A stretch of 64,000 nucleotides of DNA, from contig JAHFST010000004.1 of the NCBI GenBank assembly GCA_023265625.1, forward strand, positions 129,709 to 193,708, in the 5' to 3' direction. Positions within the stretch are counted from its first letter, which is position 1, and each line of letters starts with the position of its first letter. Shown piece after piece: positions 1,044 through 63,996 of the stretch. Source of the DNA: Deltaproteobacteria bacterium (GTDB lineage Bacteria > UBA10199 > JACPAL01 > JAHFST01). The notes under the pieces were generated by a model. The model was not told where the DNA came from. It worked only from the letters and a program-made list of their open reading frames with translations, and did not search any database. Position numbers and translations under genes: made by a program.

Positions 1044-1055
1044 TAATAAGAAGTG

Positions 1056-1194: not shown

Positions 1195-1236
1195 AATGTG
1201 GTTTCATATTTCATAAATATTATCTAAGACCACATT
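1195..1236. promoter_or_regulatory. Perfect 8-bp inverted repeat AATGTGGT-N26-ACCACATT in the porin leader
   Basis: Read directly from the sequence. It lies 23-64 bp upstream of the ATG at 1259 and has an AT-rich spacer. Confidence 0.3.
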
Positions 1237-1258
1237 TCACTAACTTAGGGGGATTCTT

Positions 1259-2455: not shown

Positions 2456-2511
2456 CGATCGAACGGCCGCGCTCCCTAAATCCTTATCAGATCTGGTTTC
2501 CGATCGGATGG

Positions 2512-3636: not shown

Positions 3637-3654
3637 TAAAGATCATGCGGTTCG

Positions 3655-3668
3655 TTGATCCTGATCAT
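3655..3668. promoter_or_regulatory. FNR/CRP-family box TTGAT-CCTG-ATCAT
   Basis: One mismatch to the TTGAT-N4-ATCAA consensus. It is about 40 bp upstream of the dihaem cytochrome gene that heads the nar operon. Confidence 0.35.
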
Positions 3669-3704
3669 ACCTCTTGCAACGTTTTTTAGTCATTATCTTC
3701 CGTA

Positions 3705-4511: not shown

Positions 4512-4513
4512 TT

Positions 4514-20835: not shown

Positions 20836-21516
20836 ATGATTGAGCTTCCCTCTTACAACAACCCTCCCCTGAAACGGCATGTGAACAAAGAGGTGGAGGA
20901 CCTCCCCTCACCCATGGATCCTCCCGAGGCCTATGCGCCTTCCAACGTGGGAGAAATCACTGCGGGCGAACTTTCCGCTCCCCTCCAATCCTTGATCCAG
21001 GATCATGAGGAGTTTCTTAAAATCCTGACGGCCTTTGACCGCGCCTTGGTGGAGCTCAAGGAAAGGGCGTGGAAATTCACGCCCGAGATCAGCGCGGTCT
21101 TGAAACGTTTTTTTCAGTGGACGGACGAAGAGATGCCGCGTCATTCCCGCAAGGAGGAGAAGGCGCTCTTCCCAATTTTAAGCGAAAAGTTTTTGGCCTC
21201 CGGTGAACACAGCCCGGGCGCACAACCGGTGACGCCCGTCGATGTCATGGAGGCGGATCATCGGACCGTCGAGCTTGGTGTCAATCTTGTGTTTAATTTG
21301 TTAGGACTCGCAGCGCGCATCAAGGATGCTGAGGCACGAGACCTGCTCTTTGAGCACGCCTTTCATCAAGGACAGGAAATTGTCGAGGTCATGAAACTGC
21401 ACATTTACAAAGAGAATACCACGCTCTTCCCTCTCGCCCAGAGACTCTTGAGCGCAGAGGAAATGTCCGTGGTGGAGAGAAAAATGAATTTTAATACTCC
21501 AATCCTACAGACCTAA
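20836..21516 (+). CDS. Hemerythrin-like (HHE cation-binding domain) protein, possibly NO/iron-sulfur repair related
   Basis: 226 aa. His/Glu-rich motifs (DHEEF, HSRKEEKALFP, EADH) fit the hemerythrin fold. Confidence 0.5.
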   Translation: MIELPSYNNPPLKRHVNKEVEDLPSPMDPPEAYAPSNVGEITAGELSAPLQSLIQDHEEFLKILTAFDRALVELKERAWKFTPEISAVLKRFFQWTDEEMPRHSRKEEKALFPILSEKFLASGEHSPGAQPVTPVDVMEADHRTVELGVNLVFNLLGLAARIKDAEARDLLFEHAFHQGQEIVEVMKLHIYKENTTLFPLAQRLLSAEEMSVVERKMNFNTPILQT

Positions 21517-21598
21517 ACACCCATAGGTGCATGGCGAGTAGGACGGGGCGGCGCGGGAAACGGCGCCGTCTTCCGAAGTTCCTTCGAGTTTAGAAGGA

Positions 21599-22885
21599 AT
21601 GGAATTGAGAAGGAGAAGAGACGTGATAGCCGCTGCTGAAGCACAGGATCTTATCCTGCGCGAGACAGTTGTCCTTGGTCCCAAAACCATTTCCCTGCGA
21701 GACTCTCTCGGCGGGTATCTTTTTCATCCCGTTATCTCACCTTCGGCCCTGCCACCGTTTGACAACTCGGCGATGGATGGGTTTGCCCTGCGCAGCTCTG
21801 ATACCAAAGGGGCGTCGGGGCATCAGCCCGTTCCTCTCAAAGTGGTGGGGACAACGGCGGCAGGTGACTTGCCCTTGTCCATTCAATCAGATGAAGCCGT
21901 CCGGATTATGACCGGGGCCCCCATTCCGTCAGGCGCCGATACAGTGGTCCCCTTTGAGGAAACGCTGGAGACGCCGGGATGCTGCTTGATTCAGAAGACA
22001 CCGGACATGGGTCAACACATCCGTCGCGCGGGCGAAGATGTGGCGAAGGGATCCGAACTGTTAAAAAGTGGCGATAAAATCACCTCCCGAACCGTGGCCC
22101 TGTTGGCAGCCGTCGGGATCGATAGGGTTGAGGTGTATCAAAAACCCCGTGTATGTGTCCTCTCCACGGGCAGCGAACTGGTTGATGTAGGGGCGGGGTC
22201 TCCCCGCCCAGGCACGGACACCGCCCCCCTACAACCGGGACAAATTTATAATAGCAACGGCCCCGCCCTCGAAATGGCCTTGCAAGAGTTGGGTATTGCG
22301 GCCCAGGTGCTGAAGACGGCCAATGACACGGAAGGGTCGTTGGAAAAATCCCTCCGAGACCATTTGGATGTCGATGTATGGATCACCGTGGGCGGTGTTT
22401 CTGCGGGTGATTTTGATTTGGTTCCCAAGGTGCTGCAAAAACTGGGTACGAAGATTCTCTTTCATAAAGTGGCCATCAAACCTGGGAAACCCCTACTTTT
22501 TGCAACCTATGCAAAGGGCGAACACGGGGGTTCACCCCTACACATCTTTGCACTCCCCGGGAACCCTGTCTCAGCCCTCGTGGTCTTCGATCAGTTTGTC
22601 CGCCCTGCCTTGCTAAAAATGATGGGAAGCAACCTTCCCTATCGTTCCCGTAAAACCGCCGTGGCCATAGAGGACTTGAAGGGAAGTGAAGGTAAAGAGG
22701 ATTATCTTCGCGGCATCGCAACCTACCGGGATGGACGCTATGAAGTACGATCGGCCGGCTCCCAAGGATCCGCCCGGCTGCTCCCGCTCGCGCTGGCCAA
22801 TGTGACGATCATTATCCCGTCATCGGTAAAAAAAGTGACGGCGGGCGAAAAAGTTGAGATCGAATTTTTTCAGGAGAAGTTATGA
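21599..22885 (+). CDS. moeA: Molybdopterin molybdotransferase MoeA
   Basis: 428 aa. Signatures include PFDNSAMDGFALRS and GGVSAGDFD, typical of MoeA. Confidence 0.88.
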   Translation: MELRRRRDVIAAAEAQDLILRETVVLGPKTISLRDSLGGYLFHPVISPSALPPFDNSAMDGFALRSSDTKGASGHQPVPLKVVGTTAAGDLPLSIQSDEAVRIMTGAPIPSGADTVVPFEETLETPGCCLIQKTPDMGQHIRRAGEDVAKGSELLKSGDKITSRTVALLAAVGIDRVEVYQKPRVCVLSTGSELVDVGAGSPRPGTDTAPLQPGQIYNSNGPALEMALQELGIAAQVLKTANDTEGSLEKSLRDHLDVDVWITVGGVSAGDFDLVPKVLQKLGTKILFHKVAIKPGKPLLFATYAKGEHGGSPLHIFALPGNPVSALVVFDQFVRPALLKMMGSNLPYRSRKTAVAIEDLKGSEGKEDYLRGIATYRDGRYEVRSAGSQGSARLLPLALANVTIIIPSSVKKVTAGEKVEIEFFQEKL

Positions 22886-31698: not shown

Positions 31699-32560
31699 AC
31701 CCTCGCACCCCATTCGCGGCTTCATCACCTCACTGATTCTTTGCACCACCCTGCTTTTTTGTAATGCCCTCCAAATTGCGAGTATATTGGTCAAACCGAT
31801 CGCCCCAACCCTGTTTCGCCGCATCAACCGCGAGATCGTCAATGCCTGGTGGGGACTCTGCGTGATTTGGGCGGAACGCCTTTATGGGATGAAACTCATC
31901 ATCACCGGCGACCCCATTCCGGCTCAAGAAAACGCGATCGTCATCTTGAACCACCAAGCCATGGTGGATATTCCCATCATGCTGGCCTTTGGTTTACGCA
32001 AGGGGCGACTGGGTGATTTGAAGTGGTTTGTCAAGGATGTCATCAAGTACGTCCCGGGAGTGGGCTGGGGGATGTTGTTTATCAACTGTCTCTTCATCAA
32101 GCGCGATTGGACGGCGGACCGTGACTATATCGAATCCGTTTTTGCCAAGATTGTCGACAACCGCATTCCTTCCTGGATTGTCTCGTTCGTGGAAGGCACC
32201 AGGCTCCGCCCCAAAAAACTGGCCTTGAGCCAACAGCACGCGCGAGAACGCGGACTGGTCCCCACCCATCACGTCATGATCCCGCGCACCAAGGGATTCG
32301 TCGCCACCACGCAAGCCCTGCGCAATCACGTCACGGCGGTTTACGATCTGACCATCGGTTACCTGGATGGCCCGCCCACCCTATGGCAATGGGTGCAGGG
32401 GCTCGTGCCCGAGGTCCATCTCCATACCCGCCGTTTCCCCATCGAGACACTCCCCACCGAAGAAAAAGCCCTCTCCGATTGGCTCTTGCAACTTTTTCAA
32501 GAGAAAGACCGGTTACTTGAAAATTTTTATCAGAATAAGAGATTCTCATTTCTTAAATGA
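31691..32560 (+). CDS. 1-acyl-sn-glycerol-3-phosphate (lysophospholipid) acyltransferase
   Basis: 289 aa. It has an N-terminal TM helix, the HX4D motif NHQAMVD and the FVEGTR motif. Confidence 0.75.
   Translation: MTRPSHPIRGFITSLILCTTLLFCNALQIASILVKPIAPTLFRRINREIVNAWWGLCVIWAERLYGMKLIITGDPIPAQENAIVILNHQAMVDIPIMLAFGLRKGRLGDLKWFVKDVIKYVPGVGWGMLFINCLFIKRDWTADRDYIESVFAKIVDNRIPSWIVSFVEGTRLRPKKLALSQQHARERGLVPTHHVMIPRTKGFVATTQALRNHVTAVYDLTIGYLDGPPTLWQWVQGLVPEVHLHTRRFPIETLPTEEKALSDWLLQLFQEKDRLLENFYQNKRFSFLK
32520..32554. repeat. Direct repeat copy A (35 bp, aaaatttttatcagaataagagattctcatttctt)
   Basis: 32 of 35 positions match copy B at 33049..33083. It lies at the 3' end of the acyltransferase gene. 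Confidence 0.7.
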
Positions 32561-33135
32561 TGACCAAATCCCTCTCAGAACTCAACCCCACCGGCCAACT
32601 TCTCCTCTACCAAGCCGAGGATGGCCTGACCAAACTCGAAGTGAAATTGGTGGACGAAACTGTTTGGCTGACTCAGTTGACTATGGCTGAACTATTTCAG
32701 ACGACTAAGCAAAACATCAGTCTGCACCTAAAAAACATACTTGAAGATGGGGAGTTAACTGAAGATCGAGTCGTCAAGGATTACTTGACAACTGCCGTTG
32801 ATGGTAAAAAATATCAGACAAAATTCTATAATCTCGAGGCCATCATCGCAGTAGGTTACCGGGTGCATTCTAAAAGAGGCACGCAATTTCGTCGCTGGGC
32901 CACGGAACGCCTGAACGAATACCTCGTCAAAGGTTTCACGATGGATGATGAGCGTCTGAAGCAAGTTTCCAATATCGGATCGGATTACTTCGATGAAATG
33001 TTGGAACGGATCAAGGATATCCGTTCCAGTGAGAAGCGATTCTACCAAAAAATTTTTATCAGAATAAAGGATTTTCATTTCTTTCCCAAACCGCAAAATC
33101 ATTCCCGGCGGGAAACAACTCTGACTGAGAGCTGA
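32557..33135 (+). CDS. rhuM: RhuM-family virulence/island protein, 3'-truncated fragment
   Basis: 192 aa. The N-terminus (LLLYQAEDGLTKLEVKLVDETVWLTQLTMAELFQTTKQNISLHLKNI) is characteristic of RhuM. Full-length proteins are about 330 aa, and homology ends at RFYQK where repeat copy B begins. The region is AT-rich relative to its flanks. Confidence 0.65.
   Translation: MMTKSLSELNPTGQLLLYQAEDGLTKLEVKLVDETVWLTQLTMAELFQTTKQNISLHLKNILEDGELTEDRVVKDYLTTAVDGKKYQTKFYNLEAIIAVGYRVHSKRGTQFRRWATERLNEYLVKGFTMDDERLKQVSNIGSDYFDEMLERIKDIRSSEKRFYQKIFIRIKDFHFFPKPQNHSRRETTLTES
33049..33083. repeat. Direct repeat copy B
   Basis: It matches copy A. It overlaps the truncated 3' end of rhuM and the 3' end of the minus-strand 610-aa gene. 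Confidence 0.7.
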
Positions 33136-34891
33136 GCAGGATTGGGCTCACATTGTCCAACTGCAAGACCCCGGTAAAAAAAGTTTCGAGGAAGCGCGCC
33201 ATCTGGTTGGAGGGTAGCGAGGGCTCCAACCAAGGCCGGACATTGGAGGGATGTTGCAGGACCAAACGACCGCCCGGGCGCAGGGCGCAAACCGACGCCG
33301 CGACTTGGCTCATATCTTCCGGATAAAACAAATAGACTCGGTCGGCGGTTTTGGCAAAGCGTTCCAAAAATGCCGCCTGCGAGAGCTTCTTGCCACGGAT
33401 CGTAACCCCCTGCCGACTGATATCCAGGTGTTGAACACTCCCACGCCGCCCGGCGGCACACACCCCCGCCTTCATCAGCCGCTTATCAAAACGGGCATCT
33501 CCCACAAAAAACGTCGTGGCATCTTTTCCCCTTGGGTACACGAGGGCCTGGTGAATTCTTGTTTGATCAATCGGTTTGGCCAGACCTTCGCGGAACGTCA
33601 AGGCCGTGGGAAACGTGGCCTTGATCCAATCGATATGCCCTGCAAACATCGCCGGATCCATCGTGGCCAGATGCCGGGGGACCAACCGTACCACCATCTG
33701 GGAAAGCGTCTGCCGGCACAGGGCCTCGCTCTGACTCTGGGAATGAAACTGCAAACATTCGTTGGTCTCCGAGACAATTTTTCCCCATTCCGGTTCCGGG
33801 GGCGGCCATTGGCCCGCCGCATGTCGCAACCAACCGTTGAACGGGACTGTATACCGGCAAAGATAACTGAACGAATGCCGCGCCACGCGCTTGGCCCGGG
33901 TCTGAAACCAGCGTAAAAAAGGGGTCAGCACGCCATGTGAGGAACGTTCCAGTTGCGCGGTGGGCACCACCTCCGTCTCAAGCGCCCGTAACCAAGTGAG
34001 CGGCACAAAGCCTTGCCTCGATTCGAACTCGAGAATTTTTCTTTGCCGATCCGACACTTTTAGAAAAAGCAGGCCCGCCGTGTGAGAGACAGACCGCCGT
34101 TGAAAAATATTAATGACATTGCCGGTCAGGTTGATCAAGGCCCACGGGGTTTGGTACACAGGACGGGTGTCACGAAACTGTCGCTCGATCTTAAAATCGG
34201 CCTCATGTTCGGGAGGGTTGAGTATCTGCAGGAACTGCGGCGAGATATCACCCCGGTCTTGTGTCACGAGAATACCGCCGGGTTTCAACGTGTTAAAAAC
34301 CGTGGTCGCGCTGGAAAGATCGTTGGTGTAAAAAAGGTAGATGACATCAACGGAGTTTTGGTGTTGCCGCATGAACTCTGGATCGGAATAAGAAGTCAGA
34401 TGAAACGTCAATCGTCCCTGACTTACCGATCCCGCAAAATAAGCCTGCAAGGACTGCATCGCCTCGGAATCATGCTCCACCACCAAGACCCGATCGCCAC
34501 GCCCCAGGGCTAGTTCAATGGTGCGATAATCGTATCCTGCCCCTAGAATCATGGTGGTCTTGCGAGAGGCGACACCCTGCAGGGATGACACCGCCCCTTC
34601 CACTTCCGATTGGCCAATACATCTCACTTGAGTCGGTATCATCGGAAACAAACGTCGCAGCGCCGTTTCATATTTTGGAAAATCCGGCTCTAAGGGCAAC
34701 ATCAGGGCCAAACTATCGGCAATGGCATAGGCAAAAGGGGTTAATCGATTGTGATCGATAGGGCCTCCTGATTGGAACACCTCCCATAATTCTTGTTTCA
34801 GCTCCGACCAGGGCACATCCTGCTTAAAAAGCCTCGCTTGTCCGGCTTCAGCGGTAAAGCGGCCCCACAATTTATCAAGTAAACCGAACAT
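33059..34891 (-). CDS. Protein with two tandem Rossmann-fold (class I methyltransferase / spermidine synthase-like) modules
   Basis: 610 aa. Two repeats of a Gly-rich nucleotide-binding motif followed by an (L/V)(K/R)PGG(I/R)LV motif are present: ILGAGYD...LKPGGILV and LRPGGRLVL. No closer family is recognised. Confidence 0.4.
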   Translation of the reverse strand: MFGLLDKLWGRFTAEAGQARLFKQDVPWSELKQELWEVFQSGGPIDHNRLTPFAYAIADSLALMLPLEPDFPKYETALRRLFPMIPTQVRCIGQSEVEGAVSSLQGVASRKTTMILGAGYDYRTIELALGRGDRVLVVEHDSEAMQSLQAYFAGSVSQGRLTFHLTSYSDPEFMRQHQNSVDVIYLFYTNDLSSATTVFNTLKPGGILVTQDRGDISPQFLQILNPPEHEADFKIERQFRDTRPVYQTPWALINLTGNVINIFQRRSVSHTAGLLFLKVSDRQRKILEFESRQGFVPLTWLRALETEVVPTAQLERSSHGVLTPFLRWFQTRAKRVARHSFSYLCRYTVPFNGWLRHAAGQWPPPEPEWGKIVSETNECLQFHSQSQSEALCRQTLSQMVVRLVPRHLATMDPAMFAGHIDWIKATFPTALTFREGLAKPIDQTRIHQALVYPRGKDATTFFVGDARFDKRLMKAGVCAAGRRGSVQHLDISRQGVTIRGKKLSQAAFLERFAKTADRVYLFYPEDMSQVAASVCALRPGGRLVLQHPSNVRPWLEPSLPSNQMARFLETFFTGVLQLDNVSPILLSSQSELFPAGNDFAVWERNENPLF

Positions 34892-37782: not shown

Positions 37783-39225
37783 GTGAACCAACCCACGGCG
37801 ACCAAACTATCCCAATTATTCGGCATCGACCTCCGCTCCCTCGCGCTGTTTCGGATCGGGACCGGGATACTCATCATCGCGGACCTGATTGATCGGAGCC
37901 GGGATCTTTCAGCTCATTACACCGACTTTGGGTTGCTGCCGCGTCATGCCCTGCTGGAAAAATTCGCCAATGTTTGGGACTGGTCGTTGTACAACTGGAG
38001 CGGGACCTTCCAGCTCGAGGCCTTGCTCTTTGTCGTGGCAGGGCTCTGTGCCGCCGCCTTGTTGGTGGGGTATCACACCCGGCTCGCCACTTGGGCCTCT
38101 TGGATCCTGCTGGTGTCCCTCCAGGCCCGCAACCCGATGGTGCTCCAGGCGGGCGATATTTTACTCCGACTCATGCTCTTTTGGGGACTCTTTCTGCCCC
38201 TCGGGGCGCGCTACTCCGTGGATCAATGGCGTCATCCAGACGCTGAGACGGGACCGGGTCTGGTCGTATCCGTCGCCACCATCGCCCTGTTGCTCCAAGT
38301 TTGTTTTGTCTACAGTTTCTCAGCCATTTTGAAGTGGCACCCCATCTGGATCAAAGACGGGACCGCCGTTTATTACGCCCTCAATATTGATCAAATGACC
38401 ACCCCGCTCGGCAACTTTATCCGACAGTTCCCATTATTCATGAAGGGCATGACCTTTGCGACTTATGCGCTGGAGGCCTTAGGCCCCTTCTTGTTTTTCT
38501 TCCCTTGGAAAAATGGCCCGATTCGAACGCTTATGATCGTTATCTTTATTAGTCTCCATCTAGGCTTGGGCCTCTGCCTGGAACTGGGATTGTTTCATTA
38601 TATCGATATGGCGAGCTTGATGGTGTTCCTCCCGGCTTGGTTTTGGGATCGTCGTCACCAAAACCGCCATCCTCCCATTCACCTCGATCTCTCCATTTGG
38701 AAAAACAGCCTGGCCCTCTGCTTCTTGATTTTTATCGTCCTGTGGAACCTGCAGACGGTCAGCGCGAAAAAATTCCCGCTTTCTCAAAAAATAGCCTGGC
38801 TGGGTCCCCTCCTGAAGATCGACCAGATGTGGGGCATGTTTGCGCCTTACCCGTTGATGGAGGATGGCTGGTACGTCATCCCGGGCAATTTACTCAATGG
38901 AAAACAAGTCGACTTGTTTCGCCAGGGACAGCCTGTCGATTGGAACAAACCCAAACTGGCCTCAACCCTGTACAAAAACCAACGCTGGCAAAAATACATG
39001 ATGAACATCTGGGGCGCCAATAACTACCCCTACCGACTCTACTACGGCCAATATCTCTGCCGGGATTGGAATACCCGCCATGAAGGACAGGAACAGGTCG
39101 ACAACTTTGAGATCACCTTCATGCGGGAGGACACCTTACCCAACTACCAGATAAAAGCCCCAGAGAAGGTGGTGATTTGGAAACACTATTGCTTCAAGGT
39201 TCCGGAGACCCTCCCGGTCAGGTAG
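37783..39225 (+). CDS. HTTM-domain (vitamin K-dependent gamma-carboxylase-like) membrane protein
   Basis: 480 aa. The characteristic N-terminus is LFGIDLRSLALFRIGTGILII, with multiple TM helices. Confidence 0.7.
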   Translation: MNQPTATKLSQLFGIDLRSLALFRIGTGILIIADLIDRSRDLSAHYTDFGLLPRHALLEKFANVWDWSLYNWSGTFQLEALLFVVAGLCAAALLVGYHTRLATWASWILLVSLQARNPMVLQAGDILLRLMLFWGLFLPLGARYSVDQWRHPDAETGPGLVVSVATIALLLQVCFVYSFSAILKWHPIWIKDGTAVYYALNIDQMTTPLGNFIRQFPLFMKGMTFATYALEALGPFLFFFPWKNGPIRTLMIVIFISLHLGLGLCLELGLFHYIDMASLMVFLPAWFWDRRHQNRHPPIHLDLSIWKNSLALCFLIFIVLWNLQTVSAKKFPLSQKIAWLGPLLKIDQMWGMFAPYPLMEDGWYVIPGNLLNGKQVDLFRQGQPVDWNKPKLASTLYKNQRWQKYMMNIWGANNYPYRLYYGQYLCRDWNTRHEGQEQVDNFEITFMREDTLPNYQIKAPEKVVIWKHYCFKVPETLPVR

Positions 39226-39245
39226 GGGTTCAAAATTTTGAACCC

Positions 39246-40664
39246 CTACATTTTCCGGGATTGCCCATTAGACAACTGTCCCAACCGATTGGTCAGCGTC
39301 CTCTCAAGTCTCAGCGGTTCCGGGGCCGGCGCGCCGGTCACCTCCTCCCACATCCAGGCCGGTTCCATACTGAGGTAGTGGGGGAATTCGTCGCTCCATG
39401 CGCGTAAGCCATGCCAGACTTGTCGGTACATCTCAATGCGGAGCTTTTTAAAGTAGCGCATCTTGCCATCCGGTGCGGCGATGAAGTCGTCGGCAAAAAT
39501 CTTGGTCTTGGGGAAACGTTGCGTGGCCACCTCCTTGAGGGCTCGATCGAACCGGAGACTTCCAATACTCACCCAGGCAATGCGACGGGGATCCAGTTTG
39601 TCGCTCAGTTGCGCCATCAGGCCTTGGTAGGCCTCCTGCCAACCGTCAAAGTGGATCATCGGATCCAAATGCAAACCGACTGGATAACCCGCCGCCTGAA
39701 TCCGTGCGGCCGCGTCAATCCGCTCCGTAATGGACGCGCATTTAAGCTCCTCCCGCATCGCAATCACTTCAGGCATTAACGACCAAGAAACCACCGTATG
39801 CCCTCGGGAATCGAGTTCAAGCAGATTGCCAATGCGGTCCGATTTTGTCTTCAGCTCCAAGAAGGCATTGGGCAGCCGCGCAAAAAACGGGACCAACTCC
39901 CGGCTGAGGGAAGTAAGATCGTCCAGCGCCAGGGAATCAGACAATTCACCGGTTCCGATGCGAAAAATACGTTCCGGTTCCTCCCGCACCCGCGCTTCGA
40001 TGGCCTGCAAAAAATCATCAATGTTCGCGGCGAGCGTCAGGACCGGATTATTTTTGAGATAGCTTTGCAGGATGCAATAGGTGCATTCCAGGTGGCAATT
40101 GGAGACCGGGTTAAAAACATAATCACCGCAGTTAACCGCGTGGCGAATCTTCGGGAACGGTTTTAAAAACGAGCCGCGATGCCGCACCAGGGCCAAGATC
40201 CGCTTGGCCTCCGTCATCGGGCCCGGCACCTTCCAGGCTCGAAAATCGTCAATTTCCTCCAACGGAATTTTGGGAAATTGAGTGCGGACCCTCACCGCCA
40301 TCGGAGAGGTCACAACCGACCGTTCCACGATCAAACTTTCCGGAGAAAAAGGCTGGAACGAACGAGAGGCCGCATCGATCTTCTCGCCCCACATCCCCCC
40401 CTCCTGTCTCACGCAACTCATCAGGTAGTCGCGAACCTGCCGCCCCAACGCCCGCGGCCCCCGGTTTTTCGATTCAGAACAAGTAAGGGCCGCCGCCTGC
40501 AAAATCGTCCCGGCCGATTGCTCACGCAACCGTGAAACATCTTCCACGGCCTCGAGGATTTCCAAAGAGAGATTCACGCCGACGGGATGATGTTCAAACC
40601 AAGCGGCCAGTCGGCCCCGTTCCCCATCGGGGAAACGCCCCAATTTTCGGGTCATCGTCTTCAT
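39246..40664 (-). CDS. Spore-photoproduct-lyase-like radical SAM protein with a ~150-aa N-terminal extension
   Basis: 472 aa. The Cys triad CHLECTYC is followed by an SPL/DNA-repair-photolyase-like TIM-barrel region. The N-terminal domain is unrecognised. Confidence 0.5.
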   Translation of the reverse strand: MKTMTRKLGRFPDGERGRLAAWFEHHPVGVNLSLEILEAVEDVSRLREQSAGTILQAAALTCSESKNRGPRALGRQVRDYLMSCVRQEGGMWGEKIDAASRSFQPFSPESLIVERSVVTSPMAVRVRTQFPKIPLEEIDDFRAWKVPGPMTEAKRILALVRHRGSFLKPFPKIRHAVNCGDYVFNPVSNCHLECTYCILQSYLKNNPVLTLAANIDDFLQAIEARVREEPERIFRIGTGELSDSLALDDLTSLSRELVPFFARLPNAFLELKTKSDRIGNLLELDSRGHTVVSWSLMPEVIAMREELKCASITERIDAAARIQAAGYPVGLHLDPMIHFDGWQEAYQGLMAQLSDKLDPRRIAWVSIGSLRFDRALKEVATQRFPKTKIFADDFIAAPDGKMRYFKKLRIEMYRQVWHGLRAWSDEFPHYLSMEPAWMWEEVTGAPAPEPLRLERTLTNRLGQLSNGQSRKM

Positions 40665-54973: not shown

Positions 54974-56674
54974 TTGAGGACAATTTCTTTCGTTCTGTTG
55001 ATACTCCTCCTGACCTGCCAGGTCTGGCCCCACCATGCCTCGGCCCAGGTACTGCATCGCCGTCCCGTCACAAAAATGGTGAAACATCCCGAGACGCTCC
55101 CAAGTGAATCCGGTGATTTTCACCTGGGCTCAGAACCTATCCCGGACCGGTGGCAAATCAAGCCCCCACCCTATTCGGTCAATCAACCGGGTCATCTCTA
55201 CGACCCTTATAATCAAAATATCCTCAAGGGCGATTACCCGATCCTGGGACAAAATACCTTCCTGATCCTGACAGGTACCAGCGAGACCGTCATCGAAGCA
55301 AAAAAACTCCCGATCCCCAGCGGGGCTAGCGCGGCGGGTGCGGGCCGATTTAATTTTTTCGGCAATGGCAACCTCCTCGAGGTCAATCAACGGTTCAAAC
55401 CCACATTCCAACTCTACCACGGCAACACGGCTTTTAAGCCGCGCGATTGGGAGCTCCGCATCACCCCAGTGTTCAATCTCAACGCCTTGAACTCCCGCCA
55501 GCGCGGCGTGGTCAACGTCAATGTGCAAAATGGCACGAGTCGATTCCAATTTGATATCGCCCTACAGGAGGCCTTTGCCGAGTACCATCTCGTCAATGTC
55601 TCTCCTTACTATGATTTCATCTCGATCCGCGGGGGGATCCAACCCTTCACGAGCGATTTTCGTGGGTTCATCTTCAGTGATACCAACCTCGGCGGAAGGA
55701 TCTTTGGCAATTTATCCAACAATCGCTACCAGTGGAATTTGGCCGCCTTTGACATGCTGGAAAAAAGCACCAACAGCGAACTCAACACCTTTGCCCGCCG
55801 CGACCAGGAAGTCTTGATTGCCAATCTATACGCCCAAGATTTTTTTGGGCTGCTCGGTTGGACCAATCAATTCAGCGTCCATTGGAATCATGACCAGGGC
55901 TCCACGCATTATGACATCAACGGTGTCTTGACGCGCCCCGCCCCCATTGGGGCCGCTGTCCCACACAGGATTGATGCGGTCTACTTAGGCTGGACCAGTG
56001 ATGGTAAGATTGGGCGCGTCAACATCAACCACGCCCTCTATTTTGCGTTGGGGGAAGACAACTTGAATCTGATCGCCCAGCGTCGCACCAAAATCAACGG
56101 AACCATGTTTGCGCTAGAACTCTCTTATGATCGTGATTGGTATCGGCTTAAGAGCTCCTTCCTGTATGCCTCCGGCGATTCTAAACCACAAAATGGCACC
56201 GCCACTGGTTTTGATTCCATCCTCGACCTGCAAAAATTTGCCGGGTCGGAAAACAGTTTCTTCAACCACCAAGCCATTCGTTTGCTCGGGGTCAACCTGG
56301 TCCAAAAAAATAGCCTCCTCCCCAGCCTGCGCAGCAGTAAGATCGAAGGACAGTCTAATTTCGTGAACCCGGGGCTTTGGCTCTACAGCGTCGGAAGCGA
56401 TCTGGAATTGCGACCGGATCTGCGGGCGTTTGTAAACGTCAACTATCTCCGGTTTGACAATACCGCCTCTCTGCAATTGCTGCTCAATCAGGGAAATATC
56501 CGAAAAGACATCGGGGTCGATTACAGCCTGGGCTTGCAATACCGTCCGTGGCTGAATAACAATGTGATCGTGAATCTCTCCCAGGCGGTGTTTCAACCAC
56601 TGGGCGGGTTTCGGGATATTTTGACGTCTAATGTTTTGTATTCAACGACGATGAATGTGGTGGTGACGTTTTGA
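54974..56674 (+). CDS. Outer-membrane beta-barrel protein (candidate porin partner of the downstream cytochrome)
   Basis: 566 aa. It has a signal peptide (ASAQ), alternating hydrophobic beta-strand pattern, and a C-terminal ..NVVVTF. Its stop overlaps the next ATG. Confidence 0.6.
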   Translation: MRTISFVLLILLLTCQVWPHHASAQVLHRRPVTKMVKHPETLPSESGDFHLGSEPIPDRWQIKPPPYSVNQPGHLYDPYNQNILKGDYPILGQNTFLILTGTSETVIEAKKLPIPSGASAAGAGRFNFFGNGNLLEVNQRFKPTFQLYHGNTAFKPRDWELRITPVFNLNALNSRQRGVVNVNVQNGTSRFQFDIALQEAFAEYHLVNVSPYYDFISIRGGIQPFTSDFRGFIFSDTNLGGRIFGNLSNNRYQWNLAAFDMLEKSTNSELNTFARRDQEVLIANLYAQDFFGLLGWTNQFSVHWNHDQGSTHYDINGVLTRPAPIGAAVPHRIDAVYLGWTSDGKIGRVNINHALYFALGEDNLNLIAQRRTKINGTMFALELSYDRDWYRLKSSFLYASGDSKPQNGTATGFDSILDLQKFAGSENSFFNHQAIRLLGVNLVQKNSLLPSLRSSKIEGQSNFVNPGLWLYSVGSDLELRPDLRAFVNVNYLRFDNTASLQLLLNQGNIRKDIGVDYSLGLQYRPWLNNNVIVNLSQAVFQPLGGFRDILTSNVLYSTTMNVVVTF

Positions 56675-59600
56675 TACCAATGGACAAGGACGGGCGCAAT
56701 AAATTGCGCCCCTACAGGAATCCTGTGCGACAAAAATTATTGCTGATTACTTCCCTCGTCATCATTGCGGCGCCCCTGTTTTCTCTCGACCGCCGAGACG
56801 ATCCCCTGCTCCGCCAAACCCCCGCGGAGGAAAAAGTTAAGAGCGCCGGTTGCCTCACCTGTCACACCGATATTGAACCCATGCACGCCTCGCCCAACGT
56901 GCGACTCGGCTGTACCGACTGCCATGGCGGCCATGAAAATATTGAGCTGCCCGCCGGGGCGCAAAAAGGCGGCCCGGAGTATGAGCGCGTCAAACAGCAG
57001 GCCCATCCTAAACCCACTTACCCAAAACGTTGGCCCAGTGCCGCCAATCCGGTACGTCCCTACAGCCTGACTTTGAAAGAAAACAAAGAATGGATTCGTT
57101 TTGTCAACCCGGGCGATTTCCGGGTCGTCGACCAAACCTGCGGCCGCTGTCATACCTCGGAGGCGTATCGATCCCCGCGCAGCGTCATGACTCATGTGGC
57201 CCCCTTCTGGGGGGCGGCCGCCTACAACAATGGGATCGTGGCCCCGAAACTGCCGTTCTTAGGAGAAAGCTATTCTCCCGAGGGCATTGCCCGCAAGCTT
57301 ACGACGGTGCCGCCACCTTCTGCGGCTGAGACGAAGCGAGGGATCATTCCCGTGACGGTTCCCCTGCCCCGCTGGAATATCACCCAACCGGGGGATATTG
57401 CCATTCGCTCTTTTGAGCGGGGTGGGCGTGTCAGCCGAATTGATCCCAGTGAGATCGGCAATCCAAACCTGTCTGAATTAGACGATCCGGGGCGCCCCGA
57501 TATGAAGCTCTCCGACCGAGGGCTCGGGACCCAATTGTTGATCAGTTCGCCGGTGTTGAATATTCACAAGACACGGCTCAACGACCCTCACCTGTCGCTC
57601 TTCGGCACCAATGACCATGCGGGTGATTACCGCTCGAGCGGGTGTACGGCCTGTCATGTGATTTACGGCAACGACCGCGATCCGGAACACTCCGGGCCCT
57701 ACGCCAAGTATGGCCATAACGGGACAAGTTCCAGTAAGGATCCAACGATCCCCAAAAACGAATCAGGGCATCCCATCCAGCACCGTCTCACCAACGCGAT
57801 CCCGACCAGTCAATGCATGGTCTGCCACATGCATCAGCCCAATGCCTTCGTGAATACCTACCTGGGCTATCAGATGTGGGATTATGAATCCGACGGGGAA
57901 TTTTTCTACCCGAAAAAACAACAACAACTCACCCCAAAGGAACGGACTGAAGCCTTGGAGTCAAACCCGGAAGGGGCCGTGATTCGTGGCCTCTGGAACG
58001 ATCCAAAATTTTTAAACCACGTCTCGGAACTCAATCCAAAATTAAAGACCACGCAATTTGCCGACTACCACGGCCATGGTTGGAATTTCCGCGCGGTCTT
58101 CAACAAGGATCGACGCGGTAACCTCTTGGATGCCAGCGGCCACAAGGTCTCCGACACCGATCCGGCCAAATTTAAAAAAGCGGTGCACCTCAAAGACATC
58201 CATCTCGAAAAGGGCATGCACTGCGTGGATTGCCACTTTAACCAAGACGCCCATGGGGACGGCAAGCTCTACGGGGCCTATGCCGATGCCGTGGCCATTT
58301 CCTGCGTGGATTGCCATGGCACCTTTCGGGAACGCGCCAAGATAGAGGCCACCGGCCCTGCCGGTCAGGGGTCCTTGGCCGACACCGTCACTACGTTTGG
58401 CAAGCGACGCTTTGTCTGGCGCGGCGGTGAACTCATCCAGCGTTCCTCGCTGTATGCGGACAAGGAATGGGCCGTGCCACAGGTGGTAGATTCCATCACG
58501 CCCGGTTCGACACACTTTAATCCCAAGGCGTACCGCGCCAAGACCATTGTGGCCTCAGACGGTCATCAGGTCGCACACGACTACGATAAGATGACTTGCT
58601 ATACCTGCCACACCAGCTTTGTGACCAACTGCTTTGGTTGCCACCTGCCGCAAAAGGCCAACGAGAAGCGCGAGATGAAACATTTTGAAGGAGAGACCTC
58701 GCGTAACTGGACCTCCTACAACCCTCAGGTCCTCCGTGATGAAGGCTATATGCTCGGGAAATGGGGACCCAGCAAGGGTGGGAAGATAGCCCCCGTGCGT
58801 TCCTCAAGCGCGCTGCTCATCAGCTCGATGAACGCCAATCGGGAACAGATCTATTTTGAACAGGCCCCAATCTCAACGCCTGGATATTCTTCCCAGGCCT
58901 TCAATCCGCATTATCCCCATGCCGTGCGCAAGACTGAGACGAAGACGTGCACCGATTGCCACATCTCGGATAAGAATGACAACAACGCCTGGATGTCCCA
59001 ACTCCTGCTATTCGGCACCAACATGGTCAATTTCATGGGACGCTACGCCTATGTTGGATTGGCGGGTGAAGGCTATGAAGCCGTCAAGGTCATCGAGACC
59101 GAGGAACCGCAGGCCGTCATCGGGAGTTATCTCCAGTCCCTGGCCTACCCGGCCGATTATCAAAAACATCTTGAGAAAAAATCCATCTTACAGACCGGTT
59201 ACCATCATCACGGCGACACCATTAACTGCCTACAACTCCGCGGGGAATACCTCTATGCGGCGAATGGCCAGGATGGTTTGCGGGTTTACGATGTGGCGAA
59301 TGTCGACAACAAAGGTTTTTCCGAACGTACCGTCACCTCCCCGGTTTCACCACTCGGCCAGCAAACCCATGTGGCAAGTAAAGAGGCCACCTGTGTCGCC
59401 CTGCCAACCAACATGCCGATCGATCCCACCCGCAAGGTCGCCGCGGAAAATCAGGAACAAGCCTGGCATCCCCTCTACCACTATGCCTACGTCTCCGATC
59501 GGGAAGAGGGTCTCATTGTGGTGAATGTGGATACCTTGGCCGATGGCAACCCACGAAACAATTTCCTCAAACGGGCCCTGACCTACAATCCCGATAACTT

Positions 59601-60330
59601 ATTCCATGGGGCGCGTTATCTCACCGTCGCCGGAGATTATCTCTATCTCATCGCTGATTCCGGCTTGAGCATCCTCAGTATCGATAATCCGTTGCAACCT
59701 AAGATCATCAAGACCTTTGGGGCCCCCTTTCTCAACGATCCGCGGGTAGTGGCCATTCAGTTCCGTTATGCCTTCGTGGGAGATGCCGATGGTCTCAAGG
59801 TGATCGACATCACGATGCCGGAAAAACCCACGCCCGTCACCGGCGTGGTGGTACCGGTCAAGGATCTCCACGATCTGTACCTGGCACGCACCGACGCCTA
59901 TGTGGCCGCCGGTCCGGAAGGGATCTTAATCATCGATATCACGCGACCGACCGCCCCCAAGTTGGCTCAAAAATTTTCCGCCGAAGGCCAAATCAACGAT
60001 GCCCGCTCGGTCCGGGTGGCCGCGACCAACGCCAGCTTCTTTGCTTATGTGGCCGATGGAAAAAATGGTCTGCGCGTCATCCAACTCACCTCCCCCAAGA
60101 CCCCCGGTTACTATGGTTTTGCGCCCATTCCACAACCCAAACTGATCGCCACCTACCCGACCAAGGGCCCGGCCATCGCCCTGTCCAAGGGGCTCGACCG
60201 TGATCGGGCGGTGGATGAGAGCGGTCACCAAGTAAGCATCTTTGGCCGCATGGGCTCTCGCCCGTTTACCTTGGAAGAGATGCGCCAACTCTTCATGAAA
60301 AATGGGCATATTTATACCGTGCATGATTGA
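56671..60330 (+). CDS. Decahaem c-type cytochrome fused to a C-terminal six-blade LVIVD-repeat beta-propeller
   Basis: 1219 aa with an N-terminal signal/anchor and ten CxxCH motifs. There are six repeats of about 40 aa of the form Y(L/A)Y(V/L)AxGxxGLx(V/I)(I/V)D(I/V)xxPxxPK. Confidence 0.85.
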   Translation: MIPMDKDGRNKLRPYRNPVRQKLLLITSLVIIAAPLFSLDRRDDPLLRQTPAEEKVKSAGCLTCHTDIEPMHASPNVRLGCTDCHGGHENIELPAGAQKGGPEYERVKQQAHPKPTYPKRWPSAANPVRPYSLTLKENKEWIRFVNPGDFRVVDQTCGRCHTSEAYRSPRSVMTHVAPFWGAAAYNNGIVAPKLPFLGESYSPEGIARKLTTVPPPSAAETKRGIIPVTVPLPRWNITQPGDIAIRSFERGGRVSRIDPSEIGNPNLSELDDPGRPDMKLSDRGLGTQLLISSPVLNIHKTRLNDPHLSLFGTNDHAGDYRSSGCTACHVIYGNDRDPEHSGPYAKYGHNGTSSSKDPTIPKNESGHPIQHRLTNAIPTSQCMVCHMHQPNAFVNTYLGYQMWDYESDGEFFYPKKQQQLTPKERTEALESNPEGAVIRGLWNDPKFLNHVSELNPKLKTTQFADYHGHGWNFRAVFNKDRRGNLLDASGHKVSDTDPAKFKKAVHLKDIHLEKGMHCVDCHFNQDAHGDGKLYGAYADAVAISCVDCHGTFRERAKIEATGPAGQGSLADTVTTFGKRRFVWRGGELIQRSSLYADKEWAVPQVVDSITPGSTHFNPKAYRAKTIVASDGHQVAHDYDKMTCYTCHTSFVTNCFGCHLPQKANEKREMKHFEGETSRNWTSYNPQVLRDEGYMLGKWGPSKGGKIAPVRSSSALLISSMNANREQIYFEQAPISTPGYSSQAFNPHYPHAVRKTETKTCTDCHISDKNDNNAWMSQLLLFGTNMVNFMGRYAYVGLAGEGYEAVKVIETEEPQAVIGSYLQSLAYPADYQKHLEKKSILQTGYHHHGDTINCLQLRGEYLYAANGQDGLRVYDVANVDNKGFSERTVTSPVSPLGQQTHVASKEATCVALPTNMPIDPTRKVAAENQEQAWHPLYHYAYVSDREEGLIVVNVDTLADGNPRNNFLKRALTYNPDNLFHGARYLTVAGDYLYLIADSGLSILSIDNPLQPKIIKTFGAPFLNDPRVVAIQFRYAFVGDADGLKVIDITMPEKPTPVTGVVVPVKDLHDLYLARTDAYVAAGPEGILIIDITRPTAPKLAQKFSAEGQINDARSVRVAATNASFFAYVADGKNGLRVIQLTSPKTPGYYGFAPIPQPKLIATYPTKGPAIALSKGLDRDRAVDESGHQVSIFGRMGSRPFTLEEMRQLFMKNGHIYTVHD

Positions 60331-61224: not shown

Positions 61225-61968
61225 CTAATCAAACTTCTCCTGATCCTCACTCTTCCCCGTCCCCTCTTTGGTGTATCCCTCAATCGTCAACCGATCCGAA
61301 TAAAACCAATCATACATATCCCGCCTCAGCTTGGCCATCCAGCTCTGCCCTTGTTCCTTGCGCTTGAGGTTGTAAAAAACCACCCCCTCCGCCATGACCT
61401 TCGTATCAAGGCCCAGCTTGGAGGCCCGCTTGGTGAAGAATCGTGAGAACAGGCCGGTCTGGAACCAGCTGCTCCAATTGTCAAAGGTGCGGTCATGCTC
61501 GTGGAAGGAGCGGTATTGGAGATCTTTGATGGCTTTTTCAAAGGGATACCATTCATGAAAATCCAACTGGTAGGGATTCCCCTGGACCTTGGGCCCGATC
61601 AGCTCGCCGACCTGCTCCCCATTCTCCTTCACATAGCCCTTGTCCAACGAGCGGAAAATCCCCTCCATGATGAAGGTCTTACCGTGCATGATCTGCAACG
61701 GGTCGATGATGTTTTTCCTATTTTGCACCTCCAACAGGCGACCTTTTTCCAGCAAAATTTTGATGTTGGTCCCGTCCAATTTCTCAACCGCGATGGTCTC
61801 GGGATCCTCAAAGACCCACTCATAGCCGGGATTGACCTGGTCAATCACCAGATAGACCTCCGGCACCCGCAACTTGAGGCTGGAACCGTGCTGCTTAAAC
61901 TGTTCCCGATTGACCGGGAAGGTCTGGCGCAACAGAGGACATTGGATCTTTGGAAAATCGGTCATCAT
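61225..61968 (-). CDS. ATP-dependent RNA/DNA-ligase-like nucleotidyltransferase (KxDGxN motif I)
   Basis: 247 aa. The motif VEKLDGTNIKI matches covalent nucleotidyltransferase motif I (Rnl2/DNA-ligase superfamily). It is small, so only the adenylyltransferase domain is present. Confidence 0.5.
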   Translation of the reverse strand: MMTDFPKIQCPLLRQTFPVNREQFKQHGSSLKLRVPEVYLVIDQVNPGYEWVFEDPETIAVEKLDGTNIKILLEKGRLLEVQNRKNIIDPLQIMHGKTFIMEGIFRSLDKGYVKENGEQVGELIGPKVQGNPYQLDFHEWYPFEKAIKDLQYRSFHEHDRTFDNWSSWFQTGLFSRFFTKRASKLGLDTKVMAEGVVFYNLKRKEQGQSWMAKLRRDMYDWFYSDRLTIEGYTKEGTGKSEDQEKFD

Positions 61969-61971
61969 AAA

Positions 61972-62274
61972 TTAAGCCGCCTTCTTTTTGTCAATAAACG
62001 TAATTCTCAATTCGACGCCTAGGGCGTCACATGCCCTCTGGATCCACTCCATGGAGGTATTTTTTCCCGTAAACTTCTCATACACAGCCTGACGGGAAAT
62101 ATTCATGCGACGGGCCAGTTCATTTTTGTTAATCTTCTTTTCCGTCATAACGCGAAATAATCCACCAAGCAAGTCTTGGAATTTTAAGAAATTTCTATCT
62201 TCTGGATCATTGGGATCCAAACCCAAAAGTTCGGTAACTGTTATTTTTCTTTTCCCTTTAAAAATCTTTTCCAT
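61972..62274 (-). CDS. HTH XRE-family antitoxin
   Basis: 100 aa with the HTH segment INKNELARRMNISRQAVYEKF. It overlaps the toxin gene. Confidence 0.65.
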   Translation of the reverse strand: MEKIFKGKRKITVTELLGLDPNDPEDRNFLKFQDLLGGLFRVMTEKKINKNELARRMNISRQAVYEKFTGKNTSMEWIQRACDALGVELRITFIDKKKAA

Positions 62275-62642
62275 CGCTTCACCCCTCGATTGACCGCTTG
62301 GCTCATGCCCCCTTTACTCTTGTGAACAGCGGCCACAATGATTAAATTCGGCTCCCTCATCGCAAAAATGATTCGTTCTCCCCTTCCTTCCGCTCTAACC
62401 TCCCAGAGATTCAGTTCCAGCGCTTCCTTTTGACGCTGTAACTTCTTCAACAAGCATTGCTCGATTAACGGAGCGTAAGATCTTCCCTCTTGGAGGGCTT
62501 TTGCCAAAAACTCCAAACTCTGAAATAGAGTTTTTCTCTCCTGTTTGCCAATTTCGAATTGTTGACAATCCTTGAGTAGGACATTTTGCCCATCCTCTTC
62601 TAAAACCCAAATACCGGGCTTCACTTCTATGATATCGATCAT
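62241..62642 (-). CDS. HigB/RelE (Gp49-like) type II toxin
   Basis: 133 aa. The C-terminus (LWEVRAEGRGERIIFAMREPNLIIVAAVHKSK...A..R...F) parallels the toxin at 726..1043. Confidence 0.6.
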   Translation of the reverse strand: MIDIIEVKPGIWVLEEDGQNVLLKDCQQFEIGKQERKTLFQSLEFLAKALQEGRSYAPLIEQCLLKKLQRQKEALELNLWEVRAEGRGERIIFAMREPNLIIVAAVHKSKGGMSQAVNRGVKRWKRFLKGKEK

Positions 62643-62649
62643 AATTACA

Positions 62650-62671
62650 ATGTCAAGTTATATCTTGACAT
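62650..62671. promoter_or_regulatory. Perfect inverted repeat ATGTCAAG-ttatat-CTTGACAT immediately upstream of the toxin start
   Basis: Read directly from the sequence. It is positioned as a TA autoregulatory operator. Confidence 0.5.
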
Positions 62672-62826
62672 ATCCTATTTTCACTTTTGGATTGATCCAT
62701 GACGATAGCCCTCAATAAGCAATATCGAGGCCAACTAAGACAATGAAGAAAAACGAGTACTTATTAGACTGGAAAATATGAAAACCGACCGATTTTCGGA
62801 CGGTGGCGTCCGAAAATCGGACTACA

Positions 62827-63996
62827 TTACGGTTGTGCAACCATTTTATGCAATTGCTCCATCCCCGCCGCGAAGACTTTGGGATTGTAACGCGCTGGAT
62901 CTTTGACATCGAGCAGGTCGTAGAGTTTTCTGACTTGCTGGAGTACCGCCGGACGGCCCACTTTTTGGCCGGCGGCCGACAAGGTCAGGGCGTCGACGGC
63001 CATGAGCCCCTGCTCGGCAACGCGGAAGCCGCCCTTTTGATAGGCCTCCTGATCGCCGCTGATCTGCTGGACCAGGGCCTCAACCAAGGCGGGCTGAAAA
63101 CCAAAAGAATCGATCTTGGCTACCAAATCCTTCATCTGGCCCGCCACCTGATTCGCCGCCTGGGTGACCCCTGGGAGATCGGGCTGATCGCTCCGAAAGG
63201 CGGCATCGATCGTCTCGATCGACCCGGCCAATTCCTTGTCTTGCTCCGGAAAGGCCTGTTGGAGGAAGTGACGGAAGATGGCGTAGTGTGAGGCATTCCA
63301 GAGCGCCTTGCCGGGGACTTGCGGGTTCAGCGGCCAATTCACATCGTAGATATTGTGATGACACGAAAAACAGTTGCGATCCGCTTCATCAAGGCGCTTG
63401 CGCTCGCCAGTTCGTTTCGCCAAAACCTCCATGGAACGTTGCAAGGCCAGCGCCTGCCCCACCGCCCAAGACTTGGCCCCGGCCCAAGGTTGTTTTTCCT
63501 TCCAGTGTTTGGGCATCACGGCGCTGAAGGTGTCCAATTCAAACACGAGATCAGGATGTCCCGCGGACAAGAGACCATGATCGATCCCCGAGTGGCAACG
63601 CAGGCAACCATCCGCACGCTTCGCCAAATCACGATTGTCATACATCCCTAGCTTCAGAGACTCGGCGTAGGTCCACCCCTTACGGGTATGGGGTTCGAGC
63701 CAGGCCCCGGCCCGACCGTGGCAGCCCTCGCAACTTACCCCATCATCGCGATCATACTTAGGCCCACGCTGCCCGGCTTCAGCGGTCACCCCATGACACG
63801 TCAAACAGGTCTCCGACTCATGGGCCGGGGTTTTTAAACCGAGCACCCGCGCCATCGTTTGAGATCGTGGATTAAACAAGACGCCATAAGCCTTGGCATG
63901 CTTGTCCTCCGTGGCCCAGGTGGTGAATTGATCCTTCCCGGTCTGTGTCCCGCCATGGCAATTACTGGAACTACAACTCGTGGCACCCATCATCAA
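62827..63996 (-). CDS. Multihaem c-type cytochrome, 5' end probably beyond the window
   Basis: At least 389 aa. It has four CxxCH motifs (CLTCH, CEGCH, CLRCH, CFSCH) plus a CSSSNCH (CX4CH) motif. The reading frame stays open to the window edge and no signal peptide is seen. Confidence 0.7.
   Translation of the reverse strand: MMMGATSCSSSNCHGGTQTGKDQFTTWATEDKHAKAYGVLFNPRSQTMARVLGLKTPAHESETCLTCHGVTAEAGQRGPKYDRDDGVSCEGCHGRAGAWLEPHTRKGWTYAESLKLGMYDNRDLAKRADGCLRCHSGIDHGLLSAGHPDLVFELDTFSAVMPKHWKEKQPWAGAKSWAVGQALALQRSMEVLAKRTGERKRLDEADRNCFSCHHNIYDVNWPLNPQVPGKALWNASHYAIFRHFLQQAFPEQDKELAGSIETIDAAFRSDQPDLPGVTQAANQVAGQMKDLVAKIDSFGFQPALVEALVQQISGDQEAYQKGGFRVAEQGLMAVDALTLSAAGQKVGRPAVLQQVRKLYDLLDVKDPARYNPKVFAAGMEQLHKMVAQP

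Follow-up and report, generated by a model that had tools for sequence, protein, structure and literature searches.

Is an RNA-ligase-like gene that begins three nucleotides after a toxin-antitoxin (TA) gene pair a working part of that TA system, or does it only lie next to it? This question is raised by three tightly coupled minus-strand genes in a 64-kb stretch of a Deltaproteobacteria genome (assembly GCA_023265625.1, contig JAHFST010000004.1, positions 129,709 to 193,708), hereafter the window, whose own positions are used for all coordinates of the locus given below. In order of transcription, the genes encode proteins of 133 amino acids (aa; the toxin), 100 aa (the antitoxin) and 247 aa (the ligase-like protein). 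An original prediction made from the letters of the window had described them as a HigB-like toxin, a helix-turn-helix (HTH) antitoxin and an RNA-ligase-like nucleotidyltransferase with the motif I sequence KLDGTN, preceded by an inverted repeat as likely operator, and had combined them into an RNA damage-and-repair module of three genes, distinct from classical two-gene TA loci. The description of the individual genes, of their tight coupling and of the repeat held up on analysis. The module did not: the TA pair and the ligase are distributed independently of each other and differ in composition, and other genes occupy the slot upstream of the ligase in related genomes. We consider it likely that at this locus a mobile cassette of the HigBA type has by chance become fused to a resident RNA-ligase-like gene and that the three genes do not form a conserved three-component system; read in this way the locus records an ordinary event, a mobile TA cassette coming to lie next to a chromosomal gene, and does not qualify as a further tripartite system.

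The TA pair recurs as a unit of two genes. The 100-aa protein matched the HTH_26 profile with 34.9 bits (cut-off 22) and HTH_3 with 27 bits, and searches with it yielded a total of 34 homologues at 51-81% identity. In every readable context of these antitoxins, a toxin homologue of 133-141 aa was encoded directly upstream with an overlap of 34-58 nucleotides (nt), and every toxin homologue with a readable context (loci L085, L086, L087 and L088) was followed by an HTH gene of about 100 aa. The search from the antitoxin side added three contexts (L135-L139, L140 and L141), each with an upstream partner of 136-141 aa. Outside the window, the pair was assessed at nine places in seven contexts (L085, L086, L087, L088, L135-L137 plus two short contigs, L140 and L141). 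The gene 3' of the pair varied with the context (a ribbon-helix-helix protein, a nucleotidyltransferase, a ribonucleotide reductase, ClpB-like ATPases or an aminotransferase), and no gene with the RNA-ligase domain PF09414 was found near the pair at any of the nine places. By fold and architecture, the TA pair belongs to the HigBA type; it is a self-contained, mobile two-gene unit, and its recurrence without a ligase speaks against the proposed difference from classical two-gene loci.

From the side of the ligase, we analyzed 80 loci of species-representative genomes, all of them metagenome-assembled genomes (MAGs), encoding proteins with 63-74% identity to the window protein. These loci span more than 15 phyla, with groups that include Deltaproteobacteria, Chlamydiae, Spirochaetes, Nitrospira, Aminicenantes, Omnitrophota, Planctomycetota, Verrucomicrobia, Elusimicrobia, Acidobacteria, Fibrobacteres and Bdellovibrionales. 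A tblastn search retrieved no relative of the window toxin or antitoxin at the 80 loci, and clustering of the proteins encoded around the ligase resulted in no family common to more than 8 loci, the only recurrent items being out-of-frame open reading frames (ORFs) inside the ligase gene itself and a sporadic AAA/DUF4143 ATPase. Genes upstream of ligase homologues ranged from 61 to 899 aa and lay on either strand, and the immediate neighbours were heterogeneous; in lineage P0078, a GreA-like/VanZ housekeeping context without TA genes was present in 10 of the 10 places shown. Recurrent TA linkage of the ligase homologues, which the original prediction had named as a check, was thus not seen for this pair (0/80 loci), and the junction of the window is shared with a single other locus, L123.

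Loci with more similar ligases allowed the slot itself to be compared. L081, whose ligase is 87% identical to that of the window, could be aligned to it across the two flanking cytochrome genes and across the ligase gene from start to stop codon, with no alignment in between. Upstream of its ligase lie a 278-aa HATPase-like gene, a DUF4325 gene and then a MazE/PemK pair that ends 4 nt before the ligase, and downstream a DUF5615 (PIN-like)/Phd-like pair stands in place of the cyclic nucleotide monophosphate (cNMP)-binding DUF1003 gene of the window. In L124 (ligase 87% identical), an unrelated 176-aa gene without identification lies upstream of the ligase and the LVIVD cytochrome gene directly downstream. 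L123, the closest relative (ligase 89% identical), encodes an antitoxin 70% identical to that of the window and ending 2 nt before the ligase, which is followed by an AbiEii gene and by a gene for a 171-aa protein that matched nothing in Pfam. The locus behaves as a hot spot of TA turnover on both sides of the ligase. An integron-cassette explanation for the tightly packed variable genes was also considered and ruled out, the 3-nt gap being too small for an attC site.

Base composition sets the two parts of the locus apart. The GC content is 0.44 for the toxin gene, 0.40 for the antitoxin gene and 0.38 for the spacer upstream, and a value as low as that of the TA pair was reached in only 0.5% of 700-nt windows. 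GC content at third codon positions (GC3) is 0.45-0.48 in the TA pair as against 0.73 in the ligase gene (overall GC 0.52) and 0.66-0.72 in neighbouring host genes. Judged by these values, the TA pair is compositionally foreign and horizontally acquired and the ligase compositionally native. The original prediction had extended both AT-richness and horizontal acquisition to the whole segment: AT-richness stands for the TA pair and its upstream spacer, acquisition stands for the TA pair with its foreign composition, and neither applies to the ligase, whose GC3 is host-like. Combining the results from the ligase side, the TA side, synteny and composition, we regard the ligase as an old resident and the TA cassettes as elements that come and go. 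Other patches of low GC (0.44-0.47, 700-nt windows) were found at about 600-1300 and 32400-33200 of the window and may be further foreign insertions.

Within the window the coupling of the three genes is close (Table 1). The toxin and antitoxin ORFs share 34 nt (62241-62274), and the antitoxin stop codon TAA (61974-61972) is separated from the ligase ATG at 61968 by the three letters TTT. Reading of the sequence located a Shine-Dalgarno-like AAGG(C)GG in the final antitoxin codons, about 9-15 nt 5' of this ATG, and a promoter and terminator scan found no such signal between the three genes. Given the 3-nt gap, the Shine-Dalgarno-like site and the lack of an intervening terminator or promoter, the ligase is probably co-transcribed with the TA pair. 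The toxin gene is preceded by a 184-nt AT-rich spacer opening with a hairpin and T-run (62789-62820), and because these end the preceding cytochrome gene, the TA cassette appears to begin its own transcription unit.

Table 1. Coordinates of the features discussed, given as window positions except in the last two rows, which refer to the loci named there
Feature	Position	Strand	Remarks
133-aa ORF (toxin)	62241..62642	minus	From the ORF listing; divergent HigB/Gp49-type RelE-superfamily fold
100-aa ORF (antitoxin)	61972..62274	minus	Xre-type HTH, HigA-like
247-aa ORF (ligase)	61225..61968	minus	Stand-alone RNA-ligase-like nucleotidyltransferase
Motif I KLDGTN	61765..61782	minus	Residues 63-68 of the 247-aa protein, with lysine K63 predicted to accept AMP
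Palindrome ATGTCAAG-ATATAA-CTTGACAT	62650..62671	no strand	Likely operator of the HTH antitoxin (predicted), overlapping core promoter elements
Terminator-like site	62789..62820	minus	14-bp perfect hairpin, then T-run; closes the upstream cytochrome gene
Predicted sigma-70-like promoter TTGACA-16-TATCAT	62629..62656	minus	11/12 matches; -10 within toxin codons 3-5
L081, TA/defence-type genes flanking the ligase	1515-4908		
L123, genes flanking the ligase	1042-2567		

The toxin had to be identified through its relatives and by structure prediction, because direct sequence searches gave nothing significant: the 133-aa protein had no significant match in Pfam, NCBIfam, PADLOC, PHROGs or PDB sequences (phmmer), and a profile of its family had none among PDB sequences. 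Seven of 16 relatives matched the Pfam family Gp49 (PF05973, best E-value 1.7e-4), the HigB/HI1419-type branch of RelE/ParE, the window protein itself being without a match. The toxin shows the fold of the RelE/ParE superfamily (HigB), with M. tuberculosis HigB1 as best structural match, and its model consists of an N-terminal beta-hairpin (residues 2-16) and helices (21-61) followed by a conserved C-terminal WEVR...K...RW region. Residues W80, E81, R90, K108, A116, G120, R123 and W124 are invariant, and R83 is present in 15 of 16 sequences. A word-indexed search of 5.8 billion proteins returned only 2 relatives, an exhaustive profile search of 1.8 billion representatives returned 17 (as clusters), pointing to a small family, and a scan of JGI metagenomes with an alignment of 8 toxin sequences returned none. 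The antitoxin is the better conserved partner, toxin homologues having 28-56% identity vs 51-81% for those of the antitoxin. As a toxin of the HigB fold, the 133-aa protein is rare and divergent; its membership in the sequence family is borderline and, by analogy with this fold and family, it would act as a ribosome-dependent mRNA endonuclease. Current family libraries miss this toxin family; its antitoxin partner is well conserved, and the likely operator can be read off from comparative data.

The candidate operator is a perfect 8-bp inverted repeat, ATGTCAAG-N6-CTTGACAT (62650-62671), ending 7 nt before the toxin ATG. Taken alone it is not exceptional in 64 kb, as the window holds 2 near-palindromes of 22 nt vs 0.67 expected from shuffles and the motif with up to 2 mismatches occurs in 16 of 100 shuffles; what makes the repeat significant is that it is conserved in place before homologous toxin genes. 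A palindrome lies 8-10 nt 5' of the toxin start in at least 6 of the 8 TA-pair loci, with the core AAGATATAnCTTGACA in 7 of the 8. The form TGTCAAG-ATATAA-CTTGACA is common to the window, L085 and L140, while L086 has TGTAAAG...CTTGACA, L088 has GTAAGATATATCTTTAC, L135 and L141 have the right half and core only, and the half-sites of L087 differ (ATGACAA-N8-TTGTCAT). On this comparative evidence, the palindrome is likely the operator bound by the HTH antitoxin. The sole other near-perfect palindrome of 22 nt in the window (at most 1 mismatched pair) lies at 39225-39246. The right arm of the repeat also contains a perfect TTGACA with TATCAT 16 nt downstream (11/12 match to sigma-70), a geometry that recurs in L085-L088 when the upstream regions are read by eye. 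We did not adopt this TTGACA as the -35 element of the toxin promoter because its -10 lies within codons 3-5 of a conserved ORF; the N-terminus of the toxin shows conservation of the protein sequence, third codon positions carrying synonymous changes.

The 247-aa protein matched PF09414 (RNA_ligase) with 31.5 bits (cut-off 27) over residues 58-209 and the phage RNA ligase family phrog_548 with an E-value of 1e-8, and a total of 1,496 homologues was found. In an alignment with 30 homologues, K63 of motif I (EKL[DN]GTN), G66 and N68 are invariant, and motif I aligns to EKVDGYN of Pab1020. Further invariant residues are E122 and G125 (GE..G, motif III-like), E194 and G195 (AEG, IV-like) and K213 and R215 (K213-L-R-R, V-like), motifs III to V being assigned by pattern and not by structural superposition. 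A total of 84 columns is invariant, including an acidic C-terminal tail, EDQEKFD. We obtained an AlphaFold2 model with a mean predicted local distance difference test score (pLDDT) of 90.4 and compared it using Foldseek: the top 31 matches were all RNA ligases, with the nucleotidyltransferase fold (probability 0.96-1.0, template modelling (TM) score 0.31-0.49), the best being Yasminevirus C12orf29, T. brucei REL1, Naegleria Rnl5 (NgrRnl), T4 Rnl2 and Pab1020 (probability about 1.0). With the best-matching solved ligases the TM score is 0.45-0.49 at about 15% identity, and matches came from fold comparison alone, a profile search of PDB sequences being empty. The protein scored far below the NCBIfam cut-offs for Rnl2 (18.8 vs 197) and for TIGR01209 (Rnl3; 16.5 vs 136.9), and its match to the RLIG1 family PF17720 was not significant (E-value 0.11); for this single domain of 247 aa, we found neither a clade-specific accessory domain nor a matching clade-level model (Rnl1-Rnl6, RLIG1). 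Sequence profiles and the predicted fold together place the protein as an uncharacterised, stand-alone member of the RNA-ligase superfamily outside the named Rnl clades, and by analogy with other members it would act through lysine-adenosine monophosphate (AMP) chemistry on RNA ends with a 5'-phosphate and a 3'-OH.

The ligase family is conserved to an unusual degree, retaining 63-75% identity between MAGs of more than 15 phyla (L001-L080, L089-L122), and no characterised or solved member was found. Viral relatives are present on 34 IMG/VR contigs, 25 with relatives at 34-63% identity and 9 with weaker ones (25-32%). The ten closest viral matches (53-63% identity) stop at residue 229-234, short of the EDQEKFD tail.

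Several observations weigh against a chance fusion. The tight antitoxin-ligase junction, without intervening signals, is kept in the closest relative L123, and only there. Elsewhere in the family, TA types head the identifiable families next to ligase homologues, with about 12 of 142 immediate neighbours (MNT/Polbeta 4, AbiEii 3, PIN 3 and FitA 2; DUF4143/AAA_14 ATPases number 4 among the same 142), compared with 2 of 150 genes lying at least 3 positions away in the same loci (PIN only). Fisher's test for this excess gave p = 0.005, which is an upper estimate of significance because single-member families are hidden in both lists (p is about 0.06 if the control is assumed to hold four hidden single-member TA families). 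Same-strand TA operons abut ligase homologues in L081 (MazEF, 4 nt), L013 (PIN, 4 nt) and L057 (Phd/PIN, 79 nt), in L043 (region 3243-3958) the gene for an orphan HigA antitoxin of the HI1420 type lies 18 nt upstream of a ligase homologue on the same strand, and in L067 the ligase is followed by BrnT/BrnA. In L043 the Gp49-type toxin gene is reduced to a 16-codon remnant, MIQIRKTDIYAKWINL. The junctions would be expected of a genuine three-component module in which RNA is cleaved by the toxin under control of the antitoxin and mending or modification of the products falls to the co-transcribed ligase, derepression delivering both enzymes: the window has its 3-nt gap and no terminator, L123 keeps the junction and the MazEF operon of L081 is fused to the ligase likewise. 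We nevertheless hold such a module to be very unlikely, with the ligase at 0/9 other places of the TA pair (seven contexts), this pair at 0/80 ligase loci and a strong GC3 difference between the two. The chemistry of the RNA ends points the same way. RelE/HigB and MazF products carry a 5'-OH and a 2',3'-cyclic or 3'-phosphate, ends that a classical ATP-dependent (lysine-AMP) ligase cannot seal without an end-healing enzyme, and the window toxin would therefore be a poor provider of substrate for the adjacent ligase. Its products would need a kinase or phosphatase before classical ligation; no end-healing kinase, phosphatase or cyclase lies beside the ligase in the window, and no such family recurs among the 142 bacterial neighbours, phosphoesterase or kinase-like neighbours being confined to the viral contigs. 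The premise of RNA cleavage would itself fail if the 133-aa protein poisoned gyrase in the manner of ParE or were an inactive protein with the RelE fold, as the missing sequence-family match of the window toxin might suggest, but its relatives match the HigB-type PF05973, a toxin gene placed before that of an Xre-HTH antitoxin is the order found in HigBA systems and the basic residues R83, R90, K108 and R123 are invariant (R83 in 15 of 16), and we regard this possibility as extremely improbable.

The excess of TA neighbours could also reflect a looser partnership at the level of genomic islands, in which the ligase is a general RNA-repair or anti-ribotoxin enzyme that tends to adjoin RNA-targeting toxins (PIN/VapC, HEPN-MNT, AbiE, MazF, HigB, BrnT) and is used by phages too. 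The enrichment beside the ligase (about 12/142 vs 2/150) is what such a partnership predicts; each of the four members of the window clade is flanked by TA-type genes, on one side or on both, or has an unassigned neighbour, relatives occur on the 34 viral contigs, and it is established that PIN nucleases leave 5'-phosphate and 3'-OH ends, which a classical ligase could reseal directly. Neighbours on the viral contigs include Metallophos (calcineurin-like phosphoesterase, 4), HD (3), an AAA_33 kinase-like protein, a CCA-adding enzyme, RlaP and a second RNA ligase, a set that recalls RNA repair as in T4 Pnkp/Rnl1 but is only a hint because phages in general often carry Metallophos and HD genes. 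However, some 85-90% of ligase homologues have no TA neighbour, orientations are mixed with several convergent or divergent cases, a cruder count of small gene pairs by size revealed no adjacency effect (10/129 vs 12/221), and the enrichment estimate is limited by the hidden single-member families. The type of toxin is uninformative, since most type II toxins target RNA anyway. On balance we judge a loose partnership unlikely. A reading in which these proteins form a new clade of stand-alone RNA ligases, conserved to an extreme degree, that reseal the cuts of endogenous or incoming ribonuclease toxins (PIN/VapC being the clearest case, since its ends are ligatable), with TA adjacency selected for co-expression of damage and repair and with phages using the ligase for counter-defence, seems to us quite unlikely. 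If the TA excess of the ligase family survives a genome-wide test, the family would become a candidate for the repair of toxin-cut RNA by a classical ligase in bacteria, where such repair is at present addressed mainly through RtcB.

Under the chance fusion that we favour, an autonomous two-gene type II cassette of the HigBA type, toxin gene first, would have been acquired horizontally and would have landed directly upstream of a resident, widely distributed and strongly conserved ligase gene. The Xre-HTH antitoxin would neutralise the toxin and, bound to the conserved 22-bp palindrome beside the start codon, act as repressor of the operon. The ligase would now probably be transcribed by read-through from the TA promoter and translated from the ribosome-binding site within the last antitoxin codons, and the coupling of TA pair and ligase would be local and accidental, the outcome of an insertion at a variable spot.

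We compared the parts of the locus with known systems. HigBA systems (M. tuberculosis HigB1/HigA1, S. pneumoniae HigBA and Gp49/HI1419-HI1420) likewise have the toxin gene first and an overlapping gene for an Xre-type HTH antitoxin, and the palindrome in the predicted promoter region of the TA pair is a probable further common feature, whereas the window toxin is too divergent for Pfam and NCBIfam, belongs to a family of 17 clusters only, and differs in its N-terminal hairpin and helices and in having an antitoxin better conserved than itself. To our knowledge, the toxin-antitoxin-chaperone system (TAC) of mycobacteria is the only established three-gene HigBA system. TAC of M. tuberculosis (HigB1-HigA1 and the SecB-like chaperone Rv1957) also arranges toxin, antitoxin and a third gene on one strand, but its third gene encodes a chaperone co-conserved with the pair, and that of the window encodes an RNA-ligase-like protein that is not.

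Among ATP-dependent RNA ligases, Rnl2/REL1, Rnl5 (NgrRnl/DraRnl), Rnl3 (Pab1020) and C12orf29/RLIG1 share with the window protein the nucleotidyltransferase fold, PF09414 and the motifs KxDGxN, GE, EG and K-x-R, whereas the window protein lacks the accessory domains that define the named clades and has invariant residues of its own, including the EDQEKFD tail. C12orf29/RLIG1, which ligates RNA with 5'-phosphate and 3'-OH ends (PMC11071452), is the nearest structural analogue, alike in size and in the position of the lysine, but the window protein is not a member of its family by sequence. Bacterial RNA repair operons (RtcAB; Pnkp/Hen1; Pnkp1-Rnl-Hen1) tie a ligase to end-healing enzymes (PMC4411300); they resemble the window locus in placing a ligase next to or together with an RNA-cutting activity, but no kinase, phosphatase, cyclase or Hen1 methyltransferase accompanies the window ligase. 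A linkage of HARP (PIN-like) with Rnl3 has been proposed from co-occurrence, together with the idea of a nuclease/ligase pair of TA-like character (PMC12153264). The window ligase belongs to a family different from RtcB and Rnl3, and its linkage to a nuclease is not conserved. We considered the HARP-Rnl3 paper (PMC12153264) as a description of the window ligase family and set it aside, since it concerns TIGR01209, of which the window protein is not a member.

In the window, the three genes are neighboured by the cNMP-binding/DUF1003 protein gene and by multihaem cytochrome genes. The large cytochrome genes that frame the locus lie at 56671-60330 (plus strand) and 62827-63996 (minus strand), one of them encoding a protein of 1,219 aa with LVIVD repeats, and are syntenic in L081 and L124. 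Elsewhere in the window, we found a Moco (molybdenum/tungsten cofactor) riboswitch at 21485-21630 on the plus strand (42.1 bits, gathering score 36) and, as the sole tRNA gene, a tRNA-Gly (CCC) at 173-245 on the minus strand.

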